This document shows positions 18,587-26,528 of a stretch of 64,000 nt of DNA, piece after piece; position 1 is the stretch's first letter, and every line of letters starts with the position of its first letter. The position numbers were made by a program, and so were the translations under genes. Under the pieces are notes generated by a model. That model saw only the letters and a program-made list of their open reading frames with translations. It did no database searches and was not told the DNA's origin. Source of the DNA: Gammaproteobacteria bacterium (GTDB lineage Bacteria; Pseudomonadota; Gammaproteobacteria; Natronospirales; REEB76); the NCBI GenBank assembly GCA_049698775.1, contig JBAVYM010000009.1:5020-69019 (forward strand), read 5' to 3'.

Positions 18587-19228
18587 TCAGACTGCATCCC
18601 AGAAAAAACGGCCAATTGAAAAACTGGCGATCTCAATGCGATCACCCGGCAACAGCGGCCCTACGCCAGCCGGCGTGCCGGTATAGATCAGATCGCCCGG
18701 CAACAGCCGCCAGTAATGGCTTAGAAATGCAACGATCTCCGCCACCGGAAACAGCATGTCACGGGTGTTGCCCTGCTGGCGCAGTACGTCATTCACACGG
18801 CACTGCATATCAATGTTCTGTATATCCAGATTCGCCGGCCACGCAACGAGATTTCCGATCACCGCGCTGCCGTCGAAAGATTTGGACAACTCCCAGGGCT
18901 GGCCCGCCTGTTTCAGCTTAGCTTGCAGTTCCCGCAACGTGAGATCAATTCCGAGTGTCACACCGGCCACATGATCAAGCGCGTCGCCGGCTGAAATTTC
19001 TTTTCCCTCGCGCCCGATGGCCACTACCAGCTCCAGCTCGTGATGTACGCTGCCCTGGTCTTTGGGCAGCTTCAGAGGCTCGCCGACTGCCACCAGACTG
19101 GTTGCAGGTTTCATGAACACCACCGGCTGCGCCGGTTTCGGCGCGCCCATCTCCTTCGCATGCTCGGCATAATTGCGGCCGATACAGAATATACGTGGTG
19201 GAACTACAGGATGGCTCATATCAGTCAT
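18587..19228 (-). CDS. Fumarylacetoacetate hydrolase (FAH) family protein
   Basis: RIFCIGRNYAEHAKEMG...VVFMKPATSLV...HHELELVVAIG...GVTLGIDLTLRELQ...PWELSKSFDGSA...GDLIYTGTPAGVGPL. Confidence 0.9.
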   Translation of the reverse strand: MTDMSHPVVPPRIFCIGRNYAEHAKEMGAPKPAQPVVFMKPATSLVAVGEPLKLPKDQGSVHHELELVVAIGREGKEISAGDALDHVAGVTLGIDLTLRELQAKLKQAGQPWELSKSFDGSAVIGNLVAWPANLDIQNIDMQCRVNDVLRQQGNTRDMLFPVAEIVAFLSHYWRLLPGDLIYTGTPAGVGPLLPGDRIEIASFSIGRFFWDAV

Positions 19229-19276
19229 GTCTGCGTGTTTACCTGATTCAAATCCGGCAATACGCAGGAGTCAATC

Positions 19277-19591
19277 TCACAAACGATCCAGCGGGCTGAG
19301 CACGCCTTTACCACCCTTGTTCATCACGTGCGTATATATCATGGTGGTGCTCACATCCTTGTGTCCCAGCAATTCCTGCACCGTGCGGATATCGTAACCC
19401 GCCTGCAAGAGATGTGTGGCAAAGGAATGCCGCAGGACATGCAGCGTCTGCGGTTTAAATCCGTCACCGATGTACGGCAGCGCCCGATCCAAGATCACGT
19501 ACCTGGAAAAATCCAGGTACGCCTTCTCGGTGAAGGCCTTCAGCGGCTGGCGCTCGGCGCCTGCGACGGCAAGGATGGACGTATTACTCAT
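19277..19591 (-). pseudogene. Chimeric ORF: topoisomerase IV subunit A (ParC) N-terminal ~48 codons fused in frame to the last ~56 codons of an integron integrase (IntI)
   Basis: N-part [36 protein letters not shown], compared with E. coli ParC ERLALHEFTENAYLNYSMYVIMDRALPFIGDGLKP. C-part [52 protein letters not shown] is the IntI/tyrosine-recombinase box II with catalytic Tyr. Junction ~19441-19450. Confidence 0.75.
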
Positions 19592-19755
19592 GGCTTAACC
19601 CGCGGACAATGCCGGAACCGCGCTATCACGCGGCTTGCGGGCGTCATGATACCGGGTGAAAGCGCCAGTTGTAACAGGGCGTATGCAGAGGCAGAGTTTC
19701 TCTAGGTCGTGCACTGACCTCACGATTCAAACCTCCGCCATGCTAAACTCTTTGA

Positions 19756-19944
19756 ATGAAGGTCAGGGAACTTGTGACCTTGATTGAGAAGGACGGCTGG
19801 AAGCAGGTTCGCCAGAAAGGCAGCCACCGGCAATTTCACCACGTTTCCAAACCCGGCACGGTTACAATCTCAGGCAATCCGGGAGTTGATGTTCCACCGG
19901 GAACATTAAACAGCGTTTTGAAACAGGCCGGCCTTAAAAAGTAG
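19756..19944 (+). CDS. hicA: HicA-family mRNA interferase toxin
   Basis: MKVRELVTLIEKDGWKQVRQKGSHRQFHHVSKPGTVTISGNPGVDVPPGTLNSVLKQAGL. Confidence 0.85.
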   Translation: MKVRELVTLIEKDGWKQVRQKGSHRQFHHVSKPGTVTISGNPGVDVPPGTLNSVLKQAGLKK

Positions 19945-19953
19945 GTGATTCCT

Positions 19954-20172
19954 ATGCGATACATGGTTGTGGTTGAAGAAGGACCATCCAGCTTCGGTGC
20001 CTATGTACCGGATCTTCCGGGCTGCGTGGCCGTCGGAAAATCGCAACAGGAAGTCCTGAAACTTATCCAAGAAGCGATTGAGTTCCACCTGGAAGGAATC
20101 ATGGAGAAAGGGAAATCCATGCCTACACCGCATTCATCCAGCATCTTCGTTGAGATTCATCCAACACAGTAA
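19954..20172 (+). CDS. hicB: HicB-family antitoxin
   Basis: MRYMVVVEEGPSSFGAYVPDLPGCVAVGKSQQEVLKLIQEAIEFHLEGIMEKG. ATG 19954 is preceded by aggtga, and the ORF track starts at GTG 19945. Confidence 0.8.
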   Translation: MRYMVVVEEGPSSFGAYVPDLPGCVAVGKSQQEVLKLIQEAIEFHLEGIMEKGKSMPTPHSSSIFVEIHPTQ

Positions 20173-20315
20173 AATGTAGTGTCTGTTGATTGTTCCCGCG
20201 CATACCAGTGCACGGGAACCAAATTACGATTCTTTGCGCCCACGGTATGCATGGAGTTCATTCAAGAGCAGTCCGGTAACAGTTCGTCCGCAGAAATCTG
20301 GCGCGAACTCGCCTT

Positions 20316-20552
20316 TCATTTCATGGCGGAGTGCGGAACAGCTTTGCGCTCTGCTGCCGGGTGAGTCAGAAACCGTTCCACCTCGGCAGCACCCAGTTCG
20401 CGTGGATACCGCTTGCCGTGGAACAGAATAAATCGCCTGGCCCAATCCACATAAGCATCTTCCGTCCGGATGCTGTAATGCCTGAGCCGGATTGCTTCTC
20501 GAATCTGGTCGAGCAGCTTGAGTGGCTTGGAGACAGTGGTTGGAGAATCCAT
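20316..20552 (-). pseudogene. intI: Integron integrase N-terminal fragment (~65 IntI-like codons, then divergence and stop)
   Basis: LLDQIREAIRLRHYSIRTEDAYVDWARRFILFHGKRYPRELGAAEVERFLTH is the conserved IntI N-terminus. Divergently oriented to the cassette array. Confidence 0.85.
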
Positions 20553-20629
20553 ACGGAAGATTTTAGGCCGCCCTAAAATTCAAATCAAACGGTAAATTGG
20601 CACGAGATGTAGAGCCCGACCTGCTTTTG

Positions 20630-20659
20630 TTGACATTAGACGACAAAGCTCACTAAAAT
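20630..20659 (+). promoter_or_regulatory. Candidate cassette promoter (Pc-like), sigma-70 type
   Basis: TTGACA (20630-20635), 18-nt spacer, TAAAAT (20654-20659), reading toward attI and the cassettes. Confidence 0.55.
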
Positions 20660-20676
20660 CTCTCGGTCTAATTCAA

Positions 20677-20683
20677 GTTAGGC
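20677..20683 (+). other. attI core recombination site (GTTAGGC)
   Basis: GTTRRRY match gttaggc between intI and the first cassette ORF. A nearby inverted repeat ttttagg-ccgc-cctaaaa (20564-20581) contains a TTAGGC-like half site. Confidence 0.5.
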
Positions 20684-20742
20684 CGCAAAAAGTATCTGCT
20701 GTCACATGACCACACCTCCGCGTCCCGCAAATAGGCATATCT

Positions 20743-21156
20743 ATGAGTAAAGCTATTGAGAATCTGAAGTCGGCCCAGCAGCGAGCGATGGCTGGTCGTC
20801 CCAAGGTCGGCGGGTTTCCCTACCTTGCGGAAACGCTTCGCAAAGCGGGTGTAACGCGCAACATCTGGTCGCTGCCCGCCTGCCAAAGCTTGTATTTGAC
20901 CGAGCAAGGCCCGGTCGTGACGCAAGGAAGTCCTCTTATCACCGGCATGGAGGACGTACCGTCATTCAATCAAGATGCTCTCATCACAGCACTGCGGACT
21001 GACCAGGCTGGCGAAAGCACTTTCCCAGAGTTCTTGGTGGCCACTTGGAAGGCGGGCGTCGTAAGCTACGACGTGGATTTCAGCAAAAGGACCGTCACCT
21101 ACTACGGGTCGGGCGGAGAAAGTTATGTCGAGTCGTATCCTGCTGCAAAGTTGTAG
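20743..21156 (+). CDS. Cassette 1: DUF1398-family protein
   Basis: FPYLAETLRKAGV...FPEFLVATWKAGVVSYDVDFSKRTVTYYGSGGESYVESYP. Confidence 0.7.
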   Translation: MSKAIENLKSAQQRAMAGRPKVGGFPYLAETLRKAGVTRNIWSLPACQSLYLTEQGPVVTQGSPLITGMEDVPSFNQDALITALRTDQAGESTFPEFLVATWKAGVVSYDVDFSKRTVTYYGSGGESYVESYPAAKL

Positions 21157-21184
21157 GCGCATTGCGATGATCAAGACGGTTGCG

Positions 21185-21196
21185 GCCTAACAATTC
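21185..21196 (+). repeat. attC of cassette 1, left part (R'' gcctaac + aattc), interrupted by the IS
   Basis: gcctaacaattc aligns with ggctaacaactc (attC4) and gcataacagttc (attC2). It continues at 22722. Confidence 0.65.
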
Positions 21197-21538
21197 TGTA
21201 AGAGACTTCCTGTCAACAGTGCGTGCTTGACTCTCTCGTCTTAAGCTTTCAGGCGTTTGCTCGTCATCATCGCGTTGTGCGCCTTGACGGGAGGCGGCAT
21301 TGCCAGTGCGATGCGATGTTCAACGGTGCCAGACTGCATTTCTGTAAACGGTCTTGTTGAGCCGATTCTGTCGGCTCGGACCAAGGTATAAACCGCGCCC
21401 GGAGACCTCGTTCGTCCAGCGGTGTCGCCCGTGACCGGGGATCAACCGGAACACGTGGATGACGACCGGATAGTTAGTCAGGTTCTCTCTGGGTGGGTCT
21501 GACCCGTGACTACCGCTTCGCGCTGACGTAGAACCCAT
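21197..21538 (-). ncRNA. Putative bridge RNA / seekRNA encoded in the IS 3' non-coding arm
   Basis: No credible ORF. Position (downstream of the recombinase) matches IS1111-group guide RNAs. Compared with the paralogous copy at 25243-25497, hairpin 21359-21377 (GAGCC...GGCTC) versus 25402-25420 (GCACC...GGTGC) shows two compensatory pair changes. Internal ttctgtaa (21339-21346) equals core + IS terminus (21194-21201). Exact RNA ends and strand are not determinable from sequence. Confidence 0.5.
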
Positions 21539-22636
21539 TCATATCATGGCAGCGACCGTGCGAGCCTGTTTGCCGGCCGGGCGCTGCACCATGGGGTGCT
21601 TCAGCCAGGCGTCGGCGTCGTAGGCCTCGTCGTGCGCGAGCATCGCCCACAGTTGCCGCGCATGCTTGTTGGCGATAGCCACCAGCACTTTGCCAAATGG
21701 CATCCGGCAGGCCAACTGGCGGATCCAGATCTGCTCGGGCGTGGACTTCTCGGCGCTCACTGCTTGGGCACGCTGCAGGCTGCTGCGTGCGCCCTGGATC
21801 AGCAGCGTGCGCAGGTACGCATCGCCCCGGCAGCTGATGGTGCCAAGGCGCGTGTGCCCGCCACTCGAGTGCTGCGTCGGCACCAAACCGAGCCAGGCCG
21901 CGAGCTGCCGTCCGTTGCGAAAATCCTTGGCTGAGCCGAGAGTCGCGACTGCGGCGTCGGCCGTGAGCGGCCCGATCCCTGTGATGGCGCGCAGCCGCAC
22001 GCAGCGTTCATCGGCCTTGGCGTGCGCTTCAATGCGTGCATCGCAGGCACCGATACGCTCCCGCACCTCGGCCCAGTGCGCACCGAGCTCATTCAGGAGT
22101 TCGTGCGTTTCCGCAGGCAGCGCCGCGAGCTGCTCCGGATTCGCCAGCACACGACGTAGCGCCACCTCGCTCTTCGCCACCACGATCCCGAATTCGGCGA
22201 GCAGTCCGCGCAGGCGGTTGCCGATTGCGAGGCTCTCCACTTTGTAGCCCTCGCGCACCCGGTGCCACGACAGCCGCGCTTGTTGCTCGACGCTCTTCAC
22301 CGGCACAAACCGCATGTTGCCCTGCCGGGCGGCCGTGGCAATCGCCTCGGCATCGCTGCGGTCGTTCTTGGCTGTGCTGTTCTTGCGAAAGGGCTTCACG
22401 AACTGCGCCGCCATCAGCCGCGGCTGCAGGCCATAGTCCAGGCAGCGCCGTGCCCAGTGATGCGCCCCACTGCAGGCCTCCATCGCCACCACCGTACCGC
22501 CCGGTACCTGGGCGAGCCACACGCTAAACGCCTCACGCCCCAAATCCCGCCAGCCCAGTACGCGGCCTGCCGCGTCCACCTCGCACACCGAAAACACGCT
22601 CTTTGCCAAATCCACACCGATGGTTATAGTGTTCAT
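21539..22636 (-). CDS. IS110/IS1111-family DEDD transposase (recombinase), 365 aa
   Basis: MNTITIGVDLAKSVFSV...VVAMEACSGAHHW...KNDRSDAEAIATAA (DEDD RuvC-like), C-terminal Transposase_20 region ITGIGPLTADAAVA...GLVPTQHSSGGHTRLGTISCRGDAYLR. ATG 22636 is preceded by gaggaag. Confidence 0.9.
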   Translation of the reverse strand: MNTITIGVDLAKSVFSVCEVDAAGRVLGWRDLGREAFSVWLAQVPGGTVVAMEACSGAHHWARRCLDYGLQPRLMAAQFVKPFRKNSTAKNDRSDAEAIATAARQGNMRFVPVKSVEQQARLSWHRVREGYKVESLAIGNRLRGLLAEFGIVVAKSEVALRRVLANPEQLAALPAETHELLNELGAHWAEVRERIGACDARIEAHAKADERCVRLRAITGIGPLTADAAVATLGSAKDFRNGRQLAAWLGLVPTQHSSGGHTRLGTISCRGDAYLRTLLIQGARSSLQRAQAVSAEKSTPEQIWIRQLACRMPFGKVLVAIANKHARQLWAMLAHDEAYDADAWLKHPMVQRPAGKQARTVAAMI

Positions 22637-22721
22637 GGAGACTTCCTCTTCTGCTGACGGTTGTATACACACACCATCATGGCCCTCGAGGCCGTAGGGA
22701 GCAGGAAGTCTCTTTTTACTC

Positions 22722-22767
22722 AATCAAGCGGACGCGGTTCCCGCGCCGCTTATTTCAAGCGTTATGC
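22722..22767 (+). repeat. attC of cassette 1, right part (L''-L'-R' gttatgc)
   Basis: aatcaagcgg-a-cgcgg ttc ccgcgccgctt atttcaagc gttatgc, the same architecture as the other attCs. Confidence 0.7.
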
Positions 22768-22785
22768 CCCTCAAGGAGAGTTTCG

Positions 22786-23133
22786 ATGATCCCGCTGCAA
22801 GAGGTTGATGTTCACACCGACAAAAAGGTGTTCTATAAGCTGCATCTTGTCGCACCAACTGGCGCGGCCCCTTTCTCTTCCGAGGTTCTCGTTTACGACT
22901 CCGAGTTCAATCCTGCTTTTGCATCCACCGTGTCGTTTCATCAACATTTCCCAGACGCTGCTGCTGCTTTCGCCCACGCTATCAGTTGGGTCAAAGGTTA
23001 TAGCCATGCCCATGGTTACACCATCAACCGCATCGACAATCCGTGCAATTGCGAGTTTCTTTCGCAAGCCGACCAACAGCAAACCATTAACGCGGCAGGG
23101 TTCACGTTACAGGTGCAGGTAAACGGGGCATAA
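22786..23133 (+). CDS. Cassette 2: hypothetical protein (115 aa), no family recognised
   Basis: Strong RBS aaggagag 6 nt upstream. The ORF fills the cassette and ends inside attC2. Confidence 0.6.
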   Translation: MIPLQEVDVHTDKKVFYKLHLVAPTGAAPFSSEVLVYDSEFNPAFASTVSFHQHFPDAAAAFAHAISWVKGYSHAHGYTINRIDNPCNCEFLSQADQQQTINAAGFTLQVQVNGA

Positions 23134-23183
23134 CAGTTCATTCAAGCGGACGGCTACGCCGCCGCTTAATTCAGGCGTTAGGC
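23128..23183 (+). repeat. attC of cassette 2
   Basis: gcataac agttcattc aagcgg-a-cggc tac gccgccgctt aattcaggc gttaggc (R'' 23128-23134, R' 23177-23183). Confidence 0.8.
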
Positions 23184-23217
23184 CGCGCAAGCCACCGCCT
23201 CAGCAGGGTCGCCCTAT

Positions 23218-23646
23218 ATGAACACCCGGAAGCAGATCGAAGAACATATTGCCACTCAGCCCGAACCAAAACGCGGCGATATGCAAGAACTGCACCGCGT
23301 CATTCTGGCACAAATGCCAAAGTGCAAGTTGTGGTTCCTAGATGGCAAAGACGAACAGGGCAAGGTTGTCTCCAACCCAAACATAGGATACGGACTGCAG
23401 ATCATCAAATATGCCGACGGAAGAACCAAGGACTTCTATCAAATTGGCATGAGCGCAAACACGACAGGAATCTCCATCTACATCCTTGGCATCGAAGACA
23501 AGAAGTATTTGGCCCAAGCGTATGGAAAGGAGCTCGGCAAGGCGAGTGTCACCGGCTATTGCATCAAGTTCAAAAAGCTCAAGGATATAGACACTGACGT
23601 ACTCGTCGCCGCAATACGGTATGGAGTTGAGCAAACAAGCATCTAA
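23218..23646 (+). CDS. Cassette 3: DUF1801 (YdhG-like) domain protein
   Basis: MNTRKQIEEHIATQPEPKRGDMQELHRVILAQMPKCKLWF...GISIYILG...ASVTGYCIKFKKLKDIDTDVLVAAIRYG. Confidence 0.7.
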   Translation: MNTRKQIEEHIATQPEPKRGDMQELHRVILAQMPKCKLWFLDGKDEQGKVVSNPNIGYGLQIIKYADGRTKDFYQIGMSANTTGISIYILGIEDKKYLAQAYGKELGKASVTGYCIKFKKLKDIDTDVLVAAIRYGVEQTSI

Positions 23647-23670
23647 CAACTCGGTCGAGGCACGAGCGCG

Positions 23671-23727
23671 GCCTAACCCCTCGTTCAAGGCGGACGGCTG
23701 CGCCGCCGCTTAACTCCAGCGTTAGCC
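23671..23727 (+). repeat. attC of cassette 3
   Basis: gcctaac ccctcgttc aaggcgg-a-cggc tgc gccgccgctt aactccagc gttagcc. Confidence 0.75.
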
Positions 23728-23750
23728 TCCTTCCAATCATTGGGACACAA

Positions 23751-24659
23751 ATGAAACGCCTTCTTCTCGTTGCATTGCTCGCAATCTCGTTCACGGCCAG
23801 CGCCGTCGTTATTCGTAGCGATGTCAAGGATGCCAAGTATCGAGTTCCGGCTTCGGCATTTCCCGCGCTGGTCGACATGCCTGGTGAGGGACATGGCGTC
23901 CTAATTGCACCTCAGTGGGTCGTAACCGCAGCTCACGCGGCGCCAATGCAAGGCATGGAAGAAGACGTAACTATCGGCGGTGTGGCGCGCAAGGTCAAAC
24001 GTGTCATCACTTATCCGGGCTACAAGAGACTGCCTGACCAGCTGGTCAAGCAGGCCTTGGCATCCGGCGATTTCTCCAAGGCGCATGCATTTCTTGCGTC
24101 GTCCAACGATATCGCGCTGATCGAACTTGTGTCTCCAGTAACGGATGTAGCTCCCGTTCCCCTCTATCGCGGGAACAAAGAGGTGGGGATGACCGTAGAG
24201 CTTGTGGGCAAGGGCGCCACGGGCAATGGCACCGAAGGCCAGGATCCTCACAGCTCGCATCGCACCGTCTTGCGCCGTGCCTTCAACGTGATTGTCGGTG
24301 CCGACGCCCGCTATGTTTGGTATCGTTTTGACCCGCCTCCATCTGCTTTGCCGCTTGAAGGCGCGACGGGAAGCGGCGACAGCGGCGGCCCCTTGCTCAT
24401 CGGAAATGGGAGTTCAAGGCAACTCGTCGGCCTGGCCTCTTGGAGCAAATATCCACCGGGCCATCCATTTTTGAGCAAATATGCACCGGGTCGCCCATTC
24501 GTGGAAGGCCTCTACGGCGAAATCGTGTACGCCGTTCGCATCTCAAGCTACATCCAATGGATAGAAGGCGTGATATCTGTGCCCGCGAGTGCCCGTACTC
24601 GGCTTCAGCCAGCGGAGGCTAACAACTCAATCCAGCGGACGCGCTATGCGCGCCGCTGA
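23751..24659 (+). CDS. Cassette 4: secreted trypsin-like (S1 family) serine protease
   Basis: Signal peptide MKRLLLVALLAISFTASA. Catalytic triad contexts WVVTAAHA (His), NDIALIEL (Asp), GDSGGPLL (Ser). The last ~14 codons are encoded by attC4. Confidence 0.85.
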   Translation: MKRLLLVALLAISFTASAVVIRSDVKDAKYRVPASAFPALVDMPGEGHGVLIAPQWVVTAAHAAPMQGMEEDVTIGGVARKVKRVITYPGYKRLPDQLVKQALASGDFSKAHAFLASSNDIALIELVSPVTDVAPVPLYRGNKEVGMTVELVGKGATGNGTEGQDPHSSHRTVLRRAFNVIVGADARYVWYRFDPPPSALPLEGATGSGDSGGPLLIGNGSSRQLVGLASWSKYPPGHPFLSKYAPGRPFVEGLYGEIVYAVRISSYIQWIEGVISVPASARTRLQPAEANNSIQRTRYARR

Positions 24660-24672
24660 TTTCCAGTTAGCG
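24617..24672 (+). repeat. attC of cassette 4
   Basis: ggctaac aactcaatc cagcgg-a-cgcgc tat gcgcgccgctg atttcca gttagcg. Confidence 0.75.
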
Positions 24673-24690
24673 CCCACAGTAACGTTTCGG

Positions 24691-24719
24691 TTGATACGTA
24701 ACTACATTGTAGTTATAAT
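24691..24719 (+). promoter_or_regulatory. Cassette-internal sigma-70 promoter with palindromic operator for the brnTA cassette
   Basis: TTGATA (24691-24696), 17 nt, TATAAT (24714-24719). The spacer contains a 7-bp-arm palindrome aactaca-t-tgtagtt (24700-24714). Confidence 0.6.
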
Positions 24720-24725
24720 CTGTGC

Positions 24726-25004
24726 ATGACCGAGCTGCGCTTCGAGTGGGATCCGGCCAAGGCCGCCGCAAACATCAAGAAGCATGGCATCGGCTTCGAT
24801 GAAGCCAAGTCCGTGTTTGCTGACGAGCGGGCCAAGCTCATCGCTGATCCGCAGCATTCGGATAACGAGGACCGGTTCGTCCTGCTCGGGCTAAGCACAA
24901 GGCTCAGATTGCTTGTCGTTTGCCACTGTTATCGCAGCAAGAGCAACACGATCCGAATCATTTCGGCCAGAAAGGCTACGGCCACTGAGTCTCGGCAATA
25001 CTGA
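24726..25004 (+). CDS. brnT: Cassette 5: BrnT (DUF497) toxin
   Basis: MTELRFEWDPAKAAANIKKHGIGFDEAKSVFADE...RFVLLGLS...LLVVCHCYR...IRIISARKAT. Confidence 0.85.
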   Translation: MTELRFEWDPAKAAANIKKHGIGFDEAKSVFADERAKLIADPQHSDNEDRFVLLGLSTRLRLLVVCHCYRSKSNTIRIISARKATATESRQY

Positions 25005-25015
25005 TAGGTGCTCCC

Positions 25016-25225
25016 ATGCGCAAAGAATACGATTTCTCCAAAGCCAAGAAGAACCCCTACGCTCCTCAGCTCAAGAAGCAAATCACTATTCGCTTGGACG
25101 GTGATGCGATTGATTACTTCAAGTCAGTTTCGGAGGAGGTCGGGATCCCATACCAGAGCCTGATCAACCTTTACTTGCGAGATTGCGCTGCCACTCACAA
25201 GCAGCTCGACTTGTCGTGGAAGTAA
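25016..25225 (+). CDS. brnA: Cassette 5: BrnA-like (CopG/RHH) antitoxin
   Basis: MRKEYDFSKAKKNPYAPQLKKQITIRLDGDAIDYFKSVSEEVGIPYQSLINLYLRDCA. Confidence 0.8.
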   Translation: MRKEYDFSKAKKNPYAPQLKKQITIRLDGDAIDYFKSVSEEVGIPYQSLINLYLRDCAATHKQLDLSWK

Positions 25226-25242
25226 GCGGGCGCTGACAGTTC

Positions 25243-25497
25243 CGTAAGAGACTTCCTGTCAATACCGCGCGCCTCATGTTCTGGCCTTGAGCTTTCAGGC
25301 ATTTGCTGTTCAGCGTGGTGTTCTCGTGGCCGAATGCGGCTTCGTCAGTTCGATGCGGTGTTGCAACGTTGCCAGACTGCATTTCCGTAAGCGGTCTTGT
25401 TGCACCGATGGTGCGGGTGCGGACCAGAGTATAAACCGCGTCCGGAGACCTCATTCATCCAGCGGTTTCGTCGGTGTTTCGGAGATCGGCCACCCGG
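25243..25497 (-). mobile_element. Orphan, diverged copy of the IS1111-attC 3' non-coding (guide-RNA) arm, with no transposase; it interrupts the decayed attC of cassette 5
   Basis: Block-wise homology to 21197-~21450: cgtaagagacttcctgtcaa, ttgagctttcaggcatttgct, ttgccagactgcatttccgtaagcggtcttgtt..., ggaccagagtataaaccgcgtccggagacctc. Preceded by the attC start cgctgacagttc. It ends against the 3' end of ltaE. Confidence 0.7.
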
Positions 25498-25514
25498 AAA
25501 GAAGGGCGGCGCAT

Positions 25515-26528
25515 TCAGCCGGCGTGGAAATACGCACGGAATGCCGCAATGACCCGCTCCACATCTGCCGCGCTGACATCCAGGTGCGTAACCAAGCGCA
25601 AATTAGCATTGGGCAGGATCAGAATACTGGCGTTCTTCAAGTGTGCGGTCAGTGGCTGCACATGCTCCGCTGCTATGCTCGCAAAAACCATGTTGGTCTG
25701 CACGGCGGCCGGATCAATTTTTATCTGCTTTATCTGTGCCAGACCTTCAGCAAGTTTCCGGGCATTGGCGTGATCTTCCGCCAAACGTTCAACGTGGTGT
25801 TCCAGCGCGTATAAGCCCGCCGCGGCCAGGACGCCCGCCTGACGCATACCGCCGCCGAGAATCTTACGCGCGCGGTGCGCTTTGCGGATCAGCTCGCGCT
25901 TGCCCACCAGCACCGTGCCGACCGGACAGCCAAGCCCTTTTGAAAGACAGATGGAAACGCTGTCAAAATGGCGGGTGATGTCCTTTACCGGCACGCCGAG
26001 TTTCACCGCCGCGTTGAACACCCGCGCGCCGTCCAGATGGATGCCAAGTCCATGCTGGCGTGCAAAGTCCGCGGCATCTTTGAGATAGGCCAGCGGCAAC
26101 ACGCGGCCGTTCTGGGTGTTTTCCAGCACCAGCAGGCGCGTGCGGGCGAAATGCGCATCATCGGGTTTGATGGCAGCCTTGATTTTTTTCAGGTCCAGCG
26201 TGCCATCGGCTTCATATTCAACGGGGCACGGCCACAAACTTCCCAGTACCGCCGCGCCACCGGCTTCGTATTTGTAGCTGTGGCCGAGTGAGCCGATGAT
26301 GAATTCCTCACCACGTTCACAGTGCGCCATAAGCGCTGCGAGATTGGATTGCGTACCGCTCGGGAAGAACAGACCGGCCTCGTGGCCGGTCAGCTCCGCG
26401 AGTTTTTCCTGCAGGCGATTGACCGTCGGATCGTCGCCGAACACGTCATCGCCTACCTCGGCCGCGGCCATGGCGGCGCGCATCGCCGCCGTCGGCCGCG
26501 TCACCGTATCACTGCGCAAGTCAACCAT
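25515..26528 (-). CDS. ltaE: Low-specificity L-threonine aldolase
   Basis: MVDLRSDTVTRPTAAMRAAMAAAEVGDDVFGDDPTVNRLQEKLAELTGHEAGLFFPSGTQSNL...LENTQNGRV...HLDGARVFNAAV...DSVSICLSKGLG. Confidence 0.9.
   Translation of the reverse strand: MVDLRSDTVTRPTAAMRAAMAAAEVGDDVFGDDPTVNRLQEKLAELTGHEAGLFFPSGTQSNLAALMAHCERGEEFIIGSLGHSYKYEAGGAAVLGSLWPCPVEYEADGTLDLKKIKAAIKPDDAHFARTRLLVLENTQNGRVLPLAYLKDAADFARQHGLGIHLDGARVFNAAVKLGVPVKDITRHFDSVSICLSKGLGCPVGTVLVGKRELIRKAHRARKILGGGMRQAGVLAAAGLYALEHHVERLAEDHANARKLAEGLAQIKQIKIDPAAVQTNMVFASIAAEHVQPLTAHLKNASILILPNANLRLVTHLDVSAADVERVIAAFRAYFHAG

Follow-up and report, generated by a model that had tools for sequence, protein, structure and literature searches.

We describe here a 6.2-kb stretch of chromosomal DNA that lies between an ltaE-type threonine aldolase gene (25515-26528) and a gene for a FAH-family hydrolase (18587-19228), both on the minus strand and both recognised by Pfam and NCBIfam, in a 64-kb window of a gammaproteobacterial contig (JBAVYM010000009.1); the window is the whole sequence that was analysed, and all positions refer to it. 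Read from the FAH side, the stretch carries two fragments of an integron integrase gene, intI, with a patch of foreign DNA between them, a promoter resembling the cassette promoter Pc, a core resembling the recombination site attI, and then a row of open reading frames (ORFs) and attC-type palindromes into which an insertion sequence (IS) has entered. Judged from these features, the stretch is most probably (about 90% in our estimate) a degraded chromosomal integron with five gene cassettes. Positions 18800-26200 were read directly with their ORFs listed, and gene content was assigned with Pfam and NCBIfam. An earlier, sequence-only reading of this DNA had proposed a dead platform (intI fragments, Pc and attI) followed by five attC-bounded cassettes, and the features it named are found where it had placed them or within a few bases. 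Elements of this kind are known; the unusual part is the scar within intI.

The integrase remnants, the Pc-like promoter and the attI-like core

The 3' fragment of intI (19277..19456, minus strand) corresponds to residues 275-333 of an intact IntI of 333 amino acids that is encoded in a related metagenome-assembled genome (MAG; L205) and scores 493.7 bits against TIGR02249. It holds the HxxR motif and the catalytic Tyr region (MIYTHV), is 85% identical to residues 275-329 of the L205 protein and, translated from 19454 to 19277, matches TIGR02249 positions 257-315 with 108.6 bits, against 75.5 bits for XerC. The 5' fragment (20316..20552, minus strand) is a 78-aa ORF with an integrase N-terminal SAM-like domain that is matched by integron-integrase models alone (NF011946, 72.9 bits; TIGR02249, 59.2 bits, profile positions 1-61). 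The fragments are thus IntI-like rather than XerC/D-like, as had been claimed from the sequence alone. Homology to IntI in the 5' fragment covers residues 1 to about 76 (20552 to 20337), past which the ORF runs on without homology to its stop at 20316. Aligned with the L205 protein, the two fragments of the window occupy residues 15-76 and 275-333; the homology ends at K76 and resumes at K275, and the central 198 codons (77-274) have been replaced by an 880-bp patch (19451-20336). The loss of residues 77-274 removes the first catalytic Arg and the IntI-specific region, and the platform is dead. With only two fragments of the gene left (residues 1-76 and 275-333), intI is a pseudogene, and the locus is thus a former integron and not a complete one. 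The sequence-only reading was right that the integrase is dead; it missed that the central codons had given way to a patch made of parC', hicAB and a truncated antitoxin gene.

The patch begins with the first 47 codons of parC (19451..19591, minus strand), now fused in frame to the 3' intI fragment at a junction that we call J2, so that a 104-aa chimeric ORF (19277-19591, minus strand) joins the 5' end of parC to the C-terminus of the integrase. This orphan fragment, hereafter parC', matches the parC_Gneg model TIGR01062 at positions 2-42 (E=2e-9) and is 69% identical to residues 5-40 of E. coli ParC; no full parC is present within the window. At J2 the heptamer AAGCCGG (Lys-Pro) is present in both parC and intI, and the junction thus sits on a 7-bp microhomology and not on a GTT site, which would fit illegitimate or templated repair rather than an event mediated by IntI. 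Upstream of the fragment lies the parC promoter and leader (19592..19755, minus strand; GTTACA-18-TATCAT ... TAAGCC-ATG), with a promoter-like site running from 19675 to 19646, and this leader is conserved with the region upstream of parC' in one related MAG (L204) and of parC in another (L205). Next come hicA (19756-19944, plus strand; Pfam HicA_toxin, 78 bits) and hicB (19954-20172, plus strand; HicB_lk_antitox, 49 bits), adjacent small genes with the family domains of a type II toxin-antitoxin (TA) pair. The patch ends with the 5' fragment of a second antitoxin gene (20240..20336, plus strand), cut at a junction, J1, against the 5' intI fragment; its EFIQEQSGNSSSAEIWRELAFHFMAE aligns with RLIQEQPDDSSPEEIVRELAYHVMVE of a 61-aa antitoxin encoded beside ParE in a further MAG (L202), and the DNA match has an E value of 4e-9. 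Possible attC remnants downstream of hicB (20255-20300; TAACAGTTCGTCC, GAGTTCATTCAAG), which would have made hicAB a cassette, were considered and rejected: the attC covariance model introduced below finds none there, and the stretch is the coding 5' end of the antitoxin gene.

Between the start of intI and the cassettes lies an intergenic region (20553..20683, plus strand) with a palindrome, GATTTTAGGCCGCCCTAAAAT, followed by the Pc-like promoter and the attI core. The promoter, TTGACA-18-TAAAAT at 20630-20659, agrees with the consensus at 11/12 positions and is the best promoter-like site of the region. The core reads TCTAATTCAAG|TTAGGC, with GTTAGGC at 20677-20683 and the crossover G at 20677, 125 bp from the intI start. 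Both motifs had been pointed out in the sequence-only reading, and both are kept in related integrons. In a metagenomic relative that is 91% identical and shares the architecture of the dead intI (L203), the same positions hold TTGACT-17-TAAAGT and TCTAATTCTAGTTAGCG, and the sequence is unrelated directly past GTTAG. In fact, the core TCTA(A/C)T..(A/C)GTTAG recurs together with the -35 and -10 elements in four loci (L203, L093, L090 and L157), and in all of them the cassettes cease to be alike once GTTAG is passed, as an attI crossover would lead one to expect; on this pattern we regard the core as a probable attI. Separately, TTAGGC(C/G/T)GC(C/T/G) motifs recur between intI and attI, as GATTAGGCCGCC, GATTAGGCGGCG and GATTAGGCTGCT in two metagenomic loci (L090 and L137) and as TTTTAGGCCGCCC in the window at 20553-20575; their role may be that of direct repeats bound by IntI, comparable to DR1/DR2 of attI1, or that of an operator of intI.

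The attC sites and the cassettes

The palindromes that follow the cassette genes were examined in two ways. First of all, a sequence pattern for the attC family, TAACNNNTCNNTCN{2,3}GCGGACGN{7,9}CGCCGCT, occurs three times in the window, where 0.00 occurrences are expected, and in at least 120 metagenome contigs, with at least 212 sites that stand a few hundred bases apart, up to seven to a contig; several of these arrays adjoin an intI gene (L136, L093, L090 and L157). Second, a covariance model, R1, was built from 48 metagenomic attC sites aligned as bottom strands, none of them from the window. In this alignment 98.3% of the cells in the R and L helices are paired, a share that drops to 25-44% once the partners are slid; four pairs show compensatory changes, and none of 500 shuffles (0/500) reaches the observed covariation. 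The R' arm lies outside the search pattern, and its presence is thus an independent result. In the window R1 finds attC3 (23671-23727, 74.8 bits), attC2 (23128-23183, 71.0 bits), attC4 (24617-24672, 55.6 bits) and the 3' part of attC1 (22713-22767, 44.2 bits), and over the whole 64 kb it finds no site besides these four at E<0.002. The fifth site, attC5, is a stub of the first 12 nt only (25231-25242), in which R'' is mutated from TAAC to TGAC; its 5' part can be aligned with the 5' part of attC1 as far as the IS junction, which is the same in both. All R1 matches are in the bottom-strand orientation, which fits cassettes on the plus strand, and they show a clear strand asymmetry (71-75 bits for the best sites, against 15-20 bits on the opposite strand). 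As a positive control, R1 was applied to an annotated class 1 integron, whose qacL and aadB attCs it recognises with 59 and 49.9 bits and in the same relative orientation.

In the folded bottom strands an internal loop separates a terminal CTAAC/GTTAG helix from an inner helix in which a T is bulged, and both this T and a second bulged G are invariant in the alignment of the family. The bottom strand of attC1, once restored by removal of the IS, folds at -17.6 kcal/mol (z = -3.9). Each cassette is thus followed by one palindrome of the R''-L''...L'-R' type with extrahelical bases on the bottom strand, the fifth surviving as its 12-nt stub. The sequence-only reading had given the palindromes at these positions and on this strand, and the unpaired A that it noted in the top-strand 5' arm is the invariant bulged T of the bottom strand. 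Its description of the sites as near-identical does not hold, with pairwise identities among the attCs of the window of only 71-81%, nor are they a lineage-specific set. They belong to a generic short family that is found in the metagenome contigs counted above and also among class 1 cassettes, including those of qacL and aadB. In fact, attC2 is about 85% identical to the attC of the qacL cassette, and 1,743 plasmid records match at least 80% of attC2. The likeness to the class 1 cassette sites extends to their 56-60-nt architecture, their R''/R' boxes and their bulged bottom-strand T and G. Class 1 integrons, on the other hand, differ from the array described here in that its cargo is not antibiotic resistance and its context includes no intI1, Tn402 or 3'-conserved segment. 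Environmental chromosomal arrays are thus rich in the short attC family known from clinical class 1 cassettes.

These results also bear on the simplest competing account, in which there would be no integron here at all but ordinary intergenic palindromes, such as repetitive extragenic palindromic (REP)-like elements or terminators, together with fragments of a Xer-type recombinase. Short GC-rich hairpins that follow ORFs do resemble terminators, and a terminator scan lists one of them. This account is nevertheless refuted, to the point where we give it next to no weight, by integron-integrase models that outscore Xer, by the 85% identity of attC2 to the qacL site and its 1,743 plasmid records, by the strand asymmetry under R1, by the conserved bulged T and G, and by the arrays that the same attC family forms beside intI in metagenomes. 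Two outcomes had been named in advance as evidence against an integron, namely an attC model without matches at these sites and integrase fragments closer to XerC/D than to IntI; neither was obtained.

The cassettes themselves are all on the plus strand. Cassette 1 (20678..22761) carries a DUF1398 ORF (20743-21156; Pfam, 30.9 bits) and ends in attC1, which is split into 21185-21196 and 22722-22767. Cassette 2 (22762..23177) carries a 115-aa ORF (22786-23133) and attC2. This ORF has no match in Pfam or NCBIfam; among 1.84 billion cluster representatives it has 57 homologous representatives at E<=1e-3, with a best identity of 66%, and these are mostly 110-120 aa long and homologous over their full length. 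The ORF is a member of a real, small, uncharacterised protein family for which Pfam has no model. Cassette 3 (23178..23721) holds a DUF1801-like ORF (23218-23646), which at 27.0 bits falls just under the Pfam cut-off of 27.2, and attC3. Cassette 4 (23722..24666) encodes a predicted secreted S1 (trypsin-like) protease (23751-24659; Pfam Trypsin, 47.5 bits), whose translation has a signal-peptide-like N-terminus and the H/D/S motifs and whose last codons extend into attC4. Cassette 5 (24667..25242) contains brnT (24726-25004; BrnT, 97 bits) and brnA (25016-25225; BrnA, 35 bits), a second type II TA pair by the adjacency and domains of its genes, ahead of the attC5 stub; a promoter of its own, TTGATA-17-TATAAT at 24691-24719, agrees with the consensus at 11/12 positions. 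This is the cargo that had been listed from the sequence alone (DUF1398, an orphan 115-aa ORF, DUF1801, an S1 protease and brnTA), with DUF1801 marginally below its cut-off. Within the protease gene, 24429-24488 is a 30-nt tandem duplication (77% identity) that encodes (S)KYPPGHPF / LSKYAPGRPF. A search of the region with Rfam gave no meaningful match, and none to an attC or a seekRNA family.

The insertion sequence in attC1 and its footprint in attC5

The IS that divides cassette 1 is 1525 bp long (21197..22721, minus strand), with its transposase gene at 21539-22636. The transposase matches the IS110-family RNA-guided transposase model NF033542 with 316.9 bits and, in Pfam, both DEDD_Tnp_IS110 and Transposase_20. 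Members of the IS1111 family have subterminal repeats of 11-13 bp, extensions of 7 bp on the left and 3 bp on the right, and a long non-coding region (NCR) downstream of tnp (the gene for the transposase), which encodes a seekRNA that selects the target (PMC11187229). The element in the window has 13-bp subterminal inverted repeats (AAGAGACTTCCTG at 21200-21212 and its complement at 22702-22714), terminal extensions of TGT (3 bp) and TTTACTC (7 bp), and a 342-bp NCR after the transposase stop (21197-21538), which by analogy is expected to be the seekRNA region; in its transposase, its ends and its NCR it is thus of the IS1111 family. It splits attC1 at 21196|21197 and 22721|22722, between R'' and L'', and its removal restores attC1 as GCCTAACAATTC|AATCAAGCGG..., without a target duplication.

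A second copy has left a footprint at the far end of the array (25243..25476, minus strand), where the right end and most of the NCR survive and the remainder is cut about 38 bp from the ltaE stop. This footprint is 77% identical to IS positions 2-237, shares the repeat families that we call D1 and D2, and follows directly after ...GCTGACAGTTC, at the same point of attC5 as the complete copy occupies in attC1. The sequence-only reading had taken the array to be ended on the right by an IS remnant, which is confirmed at 25243-25476; a point missing from that reading is that the IS did not land in the array by chance but belongs to the IS1111 family and targets attC. ISKpn4 in a Klebsiella plasmid sits in the qacL attC, which it divides at TAACAATTCA|TTCAAG, and its tnp is antisense to the cassettes; the split in the window, TAACAATTC|AATCAAG, has the same orientation and lies within 1 nt of it. 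Two independent insertions, in attC1 and attC5, thus share one point and one orientation, as in attC-specific insertion.

The element resembles the IS1111-attC group (ISPst6, ISKpn4, ISPa21 and ISPa25; Tetu & Holmes 2008; Post & Hall 2009; Siddiquee et al. 2024, PMC11187229) in its DEDD transposase, 13-bp repeats, 7/3-bp extensions and downstream NCR, and likewise in inserting between R'' and L'' with tnp antisense to the cassettes and without target duplication. It differs from the group in an insertion point that lies 1 nt off when the ends are set by the 3/7-bp rule, and in a distant transposase. The latter is 36% identical to that of ISKpn4 and 42% identical to that of ISPa25 (sequences from the supplement of the paper), has no match above 53% identity in a collection of 72,556 plasmids, and is not as close to ISPst6/ISKpn4/ISPa21 as the members of the group, which share >70% identity; ISPa25 and ISKpn4 share 46% with each other. 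A DNA search for the IS in plasmids found no close relative (coverage of at most 28% at about 70% identity), and a search for the subterminal repeat in the fetched loci gave one chance match only. The IS is thus a new and distant attC-targeting lineage of the IS1111 family, one that works like the group without being a close member of it. In the NCR, about 150 nt form a core that is conserved between its two copies. Exact matches of six or more bases between the NCR and the target are at chance level; a search tolerant of G-U pairs and guided by ISKpn4, whose target-matching NCR segments were identified by sequence matching, gave CUCAACAAGAC ... GUUGAAC in the same order as ISKpn4 UAACAAUCA ... 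GUUUGAAC, matches that are short and not statistically secure, and the assignment of guide segments is tentative. Pseudomonas chromosomal arrays, too, are said often to end in a degenerate IS1111-attC footprint, reportedly described by Tetu & Holmes in 2008. An attC-targeting lineage this distant is useful for asking how seekRNA or bridge-RNA guides converge on attC.

Class, history and surroundings of the integron

The sequence-only reading had called the element a sedentary chromosomal integron, and this label is not supported by the data. An integron counts as sedentary when it has >19 attC sites or is present in 100% of the genomes of its species (Cury et al. 2016, PMC4889954); the array described here has four detectable sites and one 12-nt stub. 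When the closest LtaE relatives were sought among 185,579 species genomes, no genome of the same species turned up; the two nearest (L001 and L002) were only 78% and 74% identical, and neither has an integron at ltaE-FAH. In L002 FAH starts about 90 bp past ltaE, with the two genes adjacent, and in L001 one membrane-protein gene stands between them. We also considered a residence of the integron at one conserved locus and rejected it. IntI proteins 85-88% identical to that of L205 are encoded at varied chromosomal loci, where they adjoin tsaB/HIT or AbiEii/ETF-QO, and not parC, FAH or ltaE.

The most fitting class for the element is a degraded chromosomal integron, in other words a cluster of attC sites that lacks an integron-integrase (CALIN) but retains an intI pseudogene, given four attC matches within 2 kb when the IS is left out. 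With CALINs (PMC4889954) it has in common two or more attC sites with no functional IntI, an array of small size, a cargo of unknown function and a nearby IS; 83% of CALINs have <6 sites, and 38% have an IS nearby (PMC4889954). Three things set it apart. First of all, attI and Pc are still present here. Second, recognisable remains of intI stand beside only 15/279 CALINs (PMC4889954), and the locus is thus of a less common and more informative type. Third, the way in which intI was lost can still be seen, and it was neither a frameshift nor a plain deletion: the centre of the gene was replaced by foreign chromosomal DNA. A further parallel, which PMC12444791 relates from Gillings et al., is the set of Xanthomonas integrons downstream of ilvD, in which intI is often inactivated by large deletions; these, too, are chromosomal integrons beside a housekeeping gene. 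Unlike them, the lineage related to the one described here has intI beside parC and not ilvD, and the attC sites of the window are of the generic class-1-like type of 56-58 nt.

The source of the patch is suggested by MAGs that carry close relatives of this IntI. In two of them (L205 and L206) an intact intI is followed, after 18 bp, by an orphan parC' of 52 aa, a hicB remnant and an antitoxin gene on the other strand, the conserved promoter and a full parC. L202 has an internally deleted intI, parC', parE with its antitoxin, and parC; L204 has an antitoxin gene, the promoter, parC', an Rce1-like gene, a second promoter and parC; and L212 has parC', parE with its antitoxin, and parC. A further contig (L213) was left out of this comparison as it is ridden with frameshifts. 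A search with the 48-residue ParC fragment returned short ParC N-terminal ORFs only, and tblastn found no parC match in the ltaE-related and attC-array loci. In the clade of the nearest IntI relatives the integron thus abuts parC and TA modules, and the patch in the window is a piece of that neighbourhood. The scenario that we prefer, by inference only, is that a copy of this neighbourhood had already suffered a deletion from the antitoxin gene into intI, which created J1, and that this copy then served as the template from which the intI at the ltaE-FAH locus was repaired or converted, one end of the conversion lying in intI homology and the other at the J2 microhomology.

The relative L203 informs on the age of this event. 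It has the same J1 and J2 junctions with a chimeric ORF that is more decayed, and its HicA and HicB are 96.8% and 98.7% identical to those of the window, while the flanking intI pieces are about 84% identical as DNA. The shared architecture, the decay of the chimera in L203 and the 97-99% identity of HicA/HicB indicate that the event is old, that the chimera has not been maintained and that hicAB has; the pair seems to be complete and subject to purifying selection. The match of the window to L203 breaks off about 30 bp upstream of the intI start codon, beside the palindrome GATTTTAGGC..CCCTAAAAT (20553-20683, against L203 160-340). With motifs shared only in attI and Pc, unrelated first cassettes and uneven identity, the locus is a recombinational mosaic. 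A contig of about 2.1 kb in the Logan assembly of SRR27973342 (L201) is 100% identical to window 19528-21654; it ends within the parC fragment and within the IS transposase gene, breaks that fit repeats elsewhere in the same genome, such as the true parC and more IS copies, which would cause them.

The history that these observations suggest can be put as follows. When it was intact, IntI, encoded on the minus strand, would have recombined attI, at G|TT (20677), with attC sites in the form of their folded bottom strands, so that promoterless cassettes stacked up downstream of Pc at 20630-20659. The centre of intI has been exchanged for the 880-bp patch, and the platform is dead. An IS of the IS1111 family, a family that selects targets by an RNA from its own non-coding region, invaded the array twice at the same point of attC, leaving one copy whole and one as a footprint, and truncation of the footprint copy put the end of the array next to ltaE. 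The remaining cassettes should still be transcribable from Pc or, for brnTA, from their own promoter, and the cassettes would be mobile only with IntI supplied in trans. The two TA pairs that are intact, hicAB and brnTA, probably contribute to the persistence of the remnant.

Several points weigh against this interpretation. Between the window and L203 the patch is conserved about twice as well (92-98%) as the intI fragments that flank it (84-85%), and the attI region cannot be aligned; a simple history of single descent predicts neither. Furthermore, the sites behind R1 were picked by a pattern derived from the attCs of the window, so that the model is subfamily-specific, a weakness that the R' arm and the class 1 control partly offset; and the functions of Pc, attI and attC are read from their sequences.

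Two alternatives to parts of this history have to be weighed. In the first, the integron would be no old resident but a fairly recent arrival in the ltaE-FAH spacer, by horizontal acquisition or by translocation within the genome from an original home beside parC. The missing integron in the two nearest genomes and the scatter of close IntI relatives over several different loci speak for such a move. So, too, does the preservation of the native spacer length, of which 38 bp after ltaE (including a terminator-like hairpin) and 48 bp before FAH remain, together matching the 88-bp ltaE-FAH spacer of L002. The GC content of the insert is below that of the flanks (52-56% against 57-61%), the parC'-TA DNA inside intI has its match in the DNA around intI and parC in L202, L205 and L206, and the L203 sequence past the 3' intI fragment differs from the FAH flank. 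The borders, however, show no transposition genes, Tn402-like ends or target duplication, and the nearest genomes are so distant (74-78% LtaE identity) that a missing integron says little about age. We rate a recent arrival as possible, with the odds somewhat against it.

In the second alternative the platform would be dead only in cis and the array live, a second and intact integron elsewhere in the genome supplying IntI in trans and acting as donor of the patch and of array swaps. Three of the attCs have kept their structure and reach scores equal to or above those of clinical attCs, the window and L203 share the junctions of the dead intI next to unrelated attI-proximal regions and first cassettes, and an intact intI of the same lineage stands beside parC in related MAGs; moreover, about 20% of integron-bearing genomes encode >1 IntI, and half of CALINs are in IntI-encoding genomes (PMC4889954). 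The 64-kb window, on the other hand, contains no second intI and no further attC, and 2/5 attCs are disrupted by the IS. Furthermore, the difference from L203 begins 30 bp from the intI start and takes in all of attI, and thus looks like a homologous replacement of a segment and not like an exchange at G|TT. An array live in trans is therefore the less probable of the two alternatives and, in our view, unlikely. The degraded integron in its preferred history offers a clean, fully dissected case of chromosomal integron death, with an integrase apparently lost by templated replacement and an array invaded twice and then truncated; nothing here alters the current understanding of integrons.

Finally, the parC neighbourhood presents some regularities of its own. 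Orphan 5' fragments of parC, of about 40-54 codons, recur in the related MAGs upstream of small modules, with a complete parC after them (orphan and start of full gene at 641-787 and 1405- in L202, 373-555 and 1256- in L204, 1174-1332 and 2250- in L205, and 1093-1284 and 1867- in L212; also in L206). The orphans mostly begin MSNTS..., with MSNRC... in L204 and MGNVA... in L212, and their 3' boundaries vary by about 15 codons. The modules that follow are parDE-like genes, hicB, an Unstab antitoxin gene and an Rce1-like gene, and the complete parC after them comes with another N-terminus and at times with another promoter; in L205 a run of 75 nt is identical between the orphan and the full gene. 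On one reading, the parC' inside the dead intI of the window is an instance of this recurrent pattern, and the 5' end of parC serves small modules as a hot spot for site-specific insertion, each of them bringing a replacement 5' end; we give this reading little credence. It would make the site a second place of gene capture beside the integron, where IntI or another recombinase might act, as against the residue of one old duplication. The parC fragment of the window also contains, at 19489-19530, a 19-nt inverted repeat that is 79% complementary (core GTACCTGGA...TCCAGGTAC) and falls on the conserved AYLD(Y/F)S.YV codons. The parC copies of the related MAGs contain it in weaker form. The repeat is probably coincidental, but it stands about 15-20 codons upstream of the zone of recurrent truncation.

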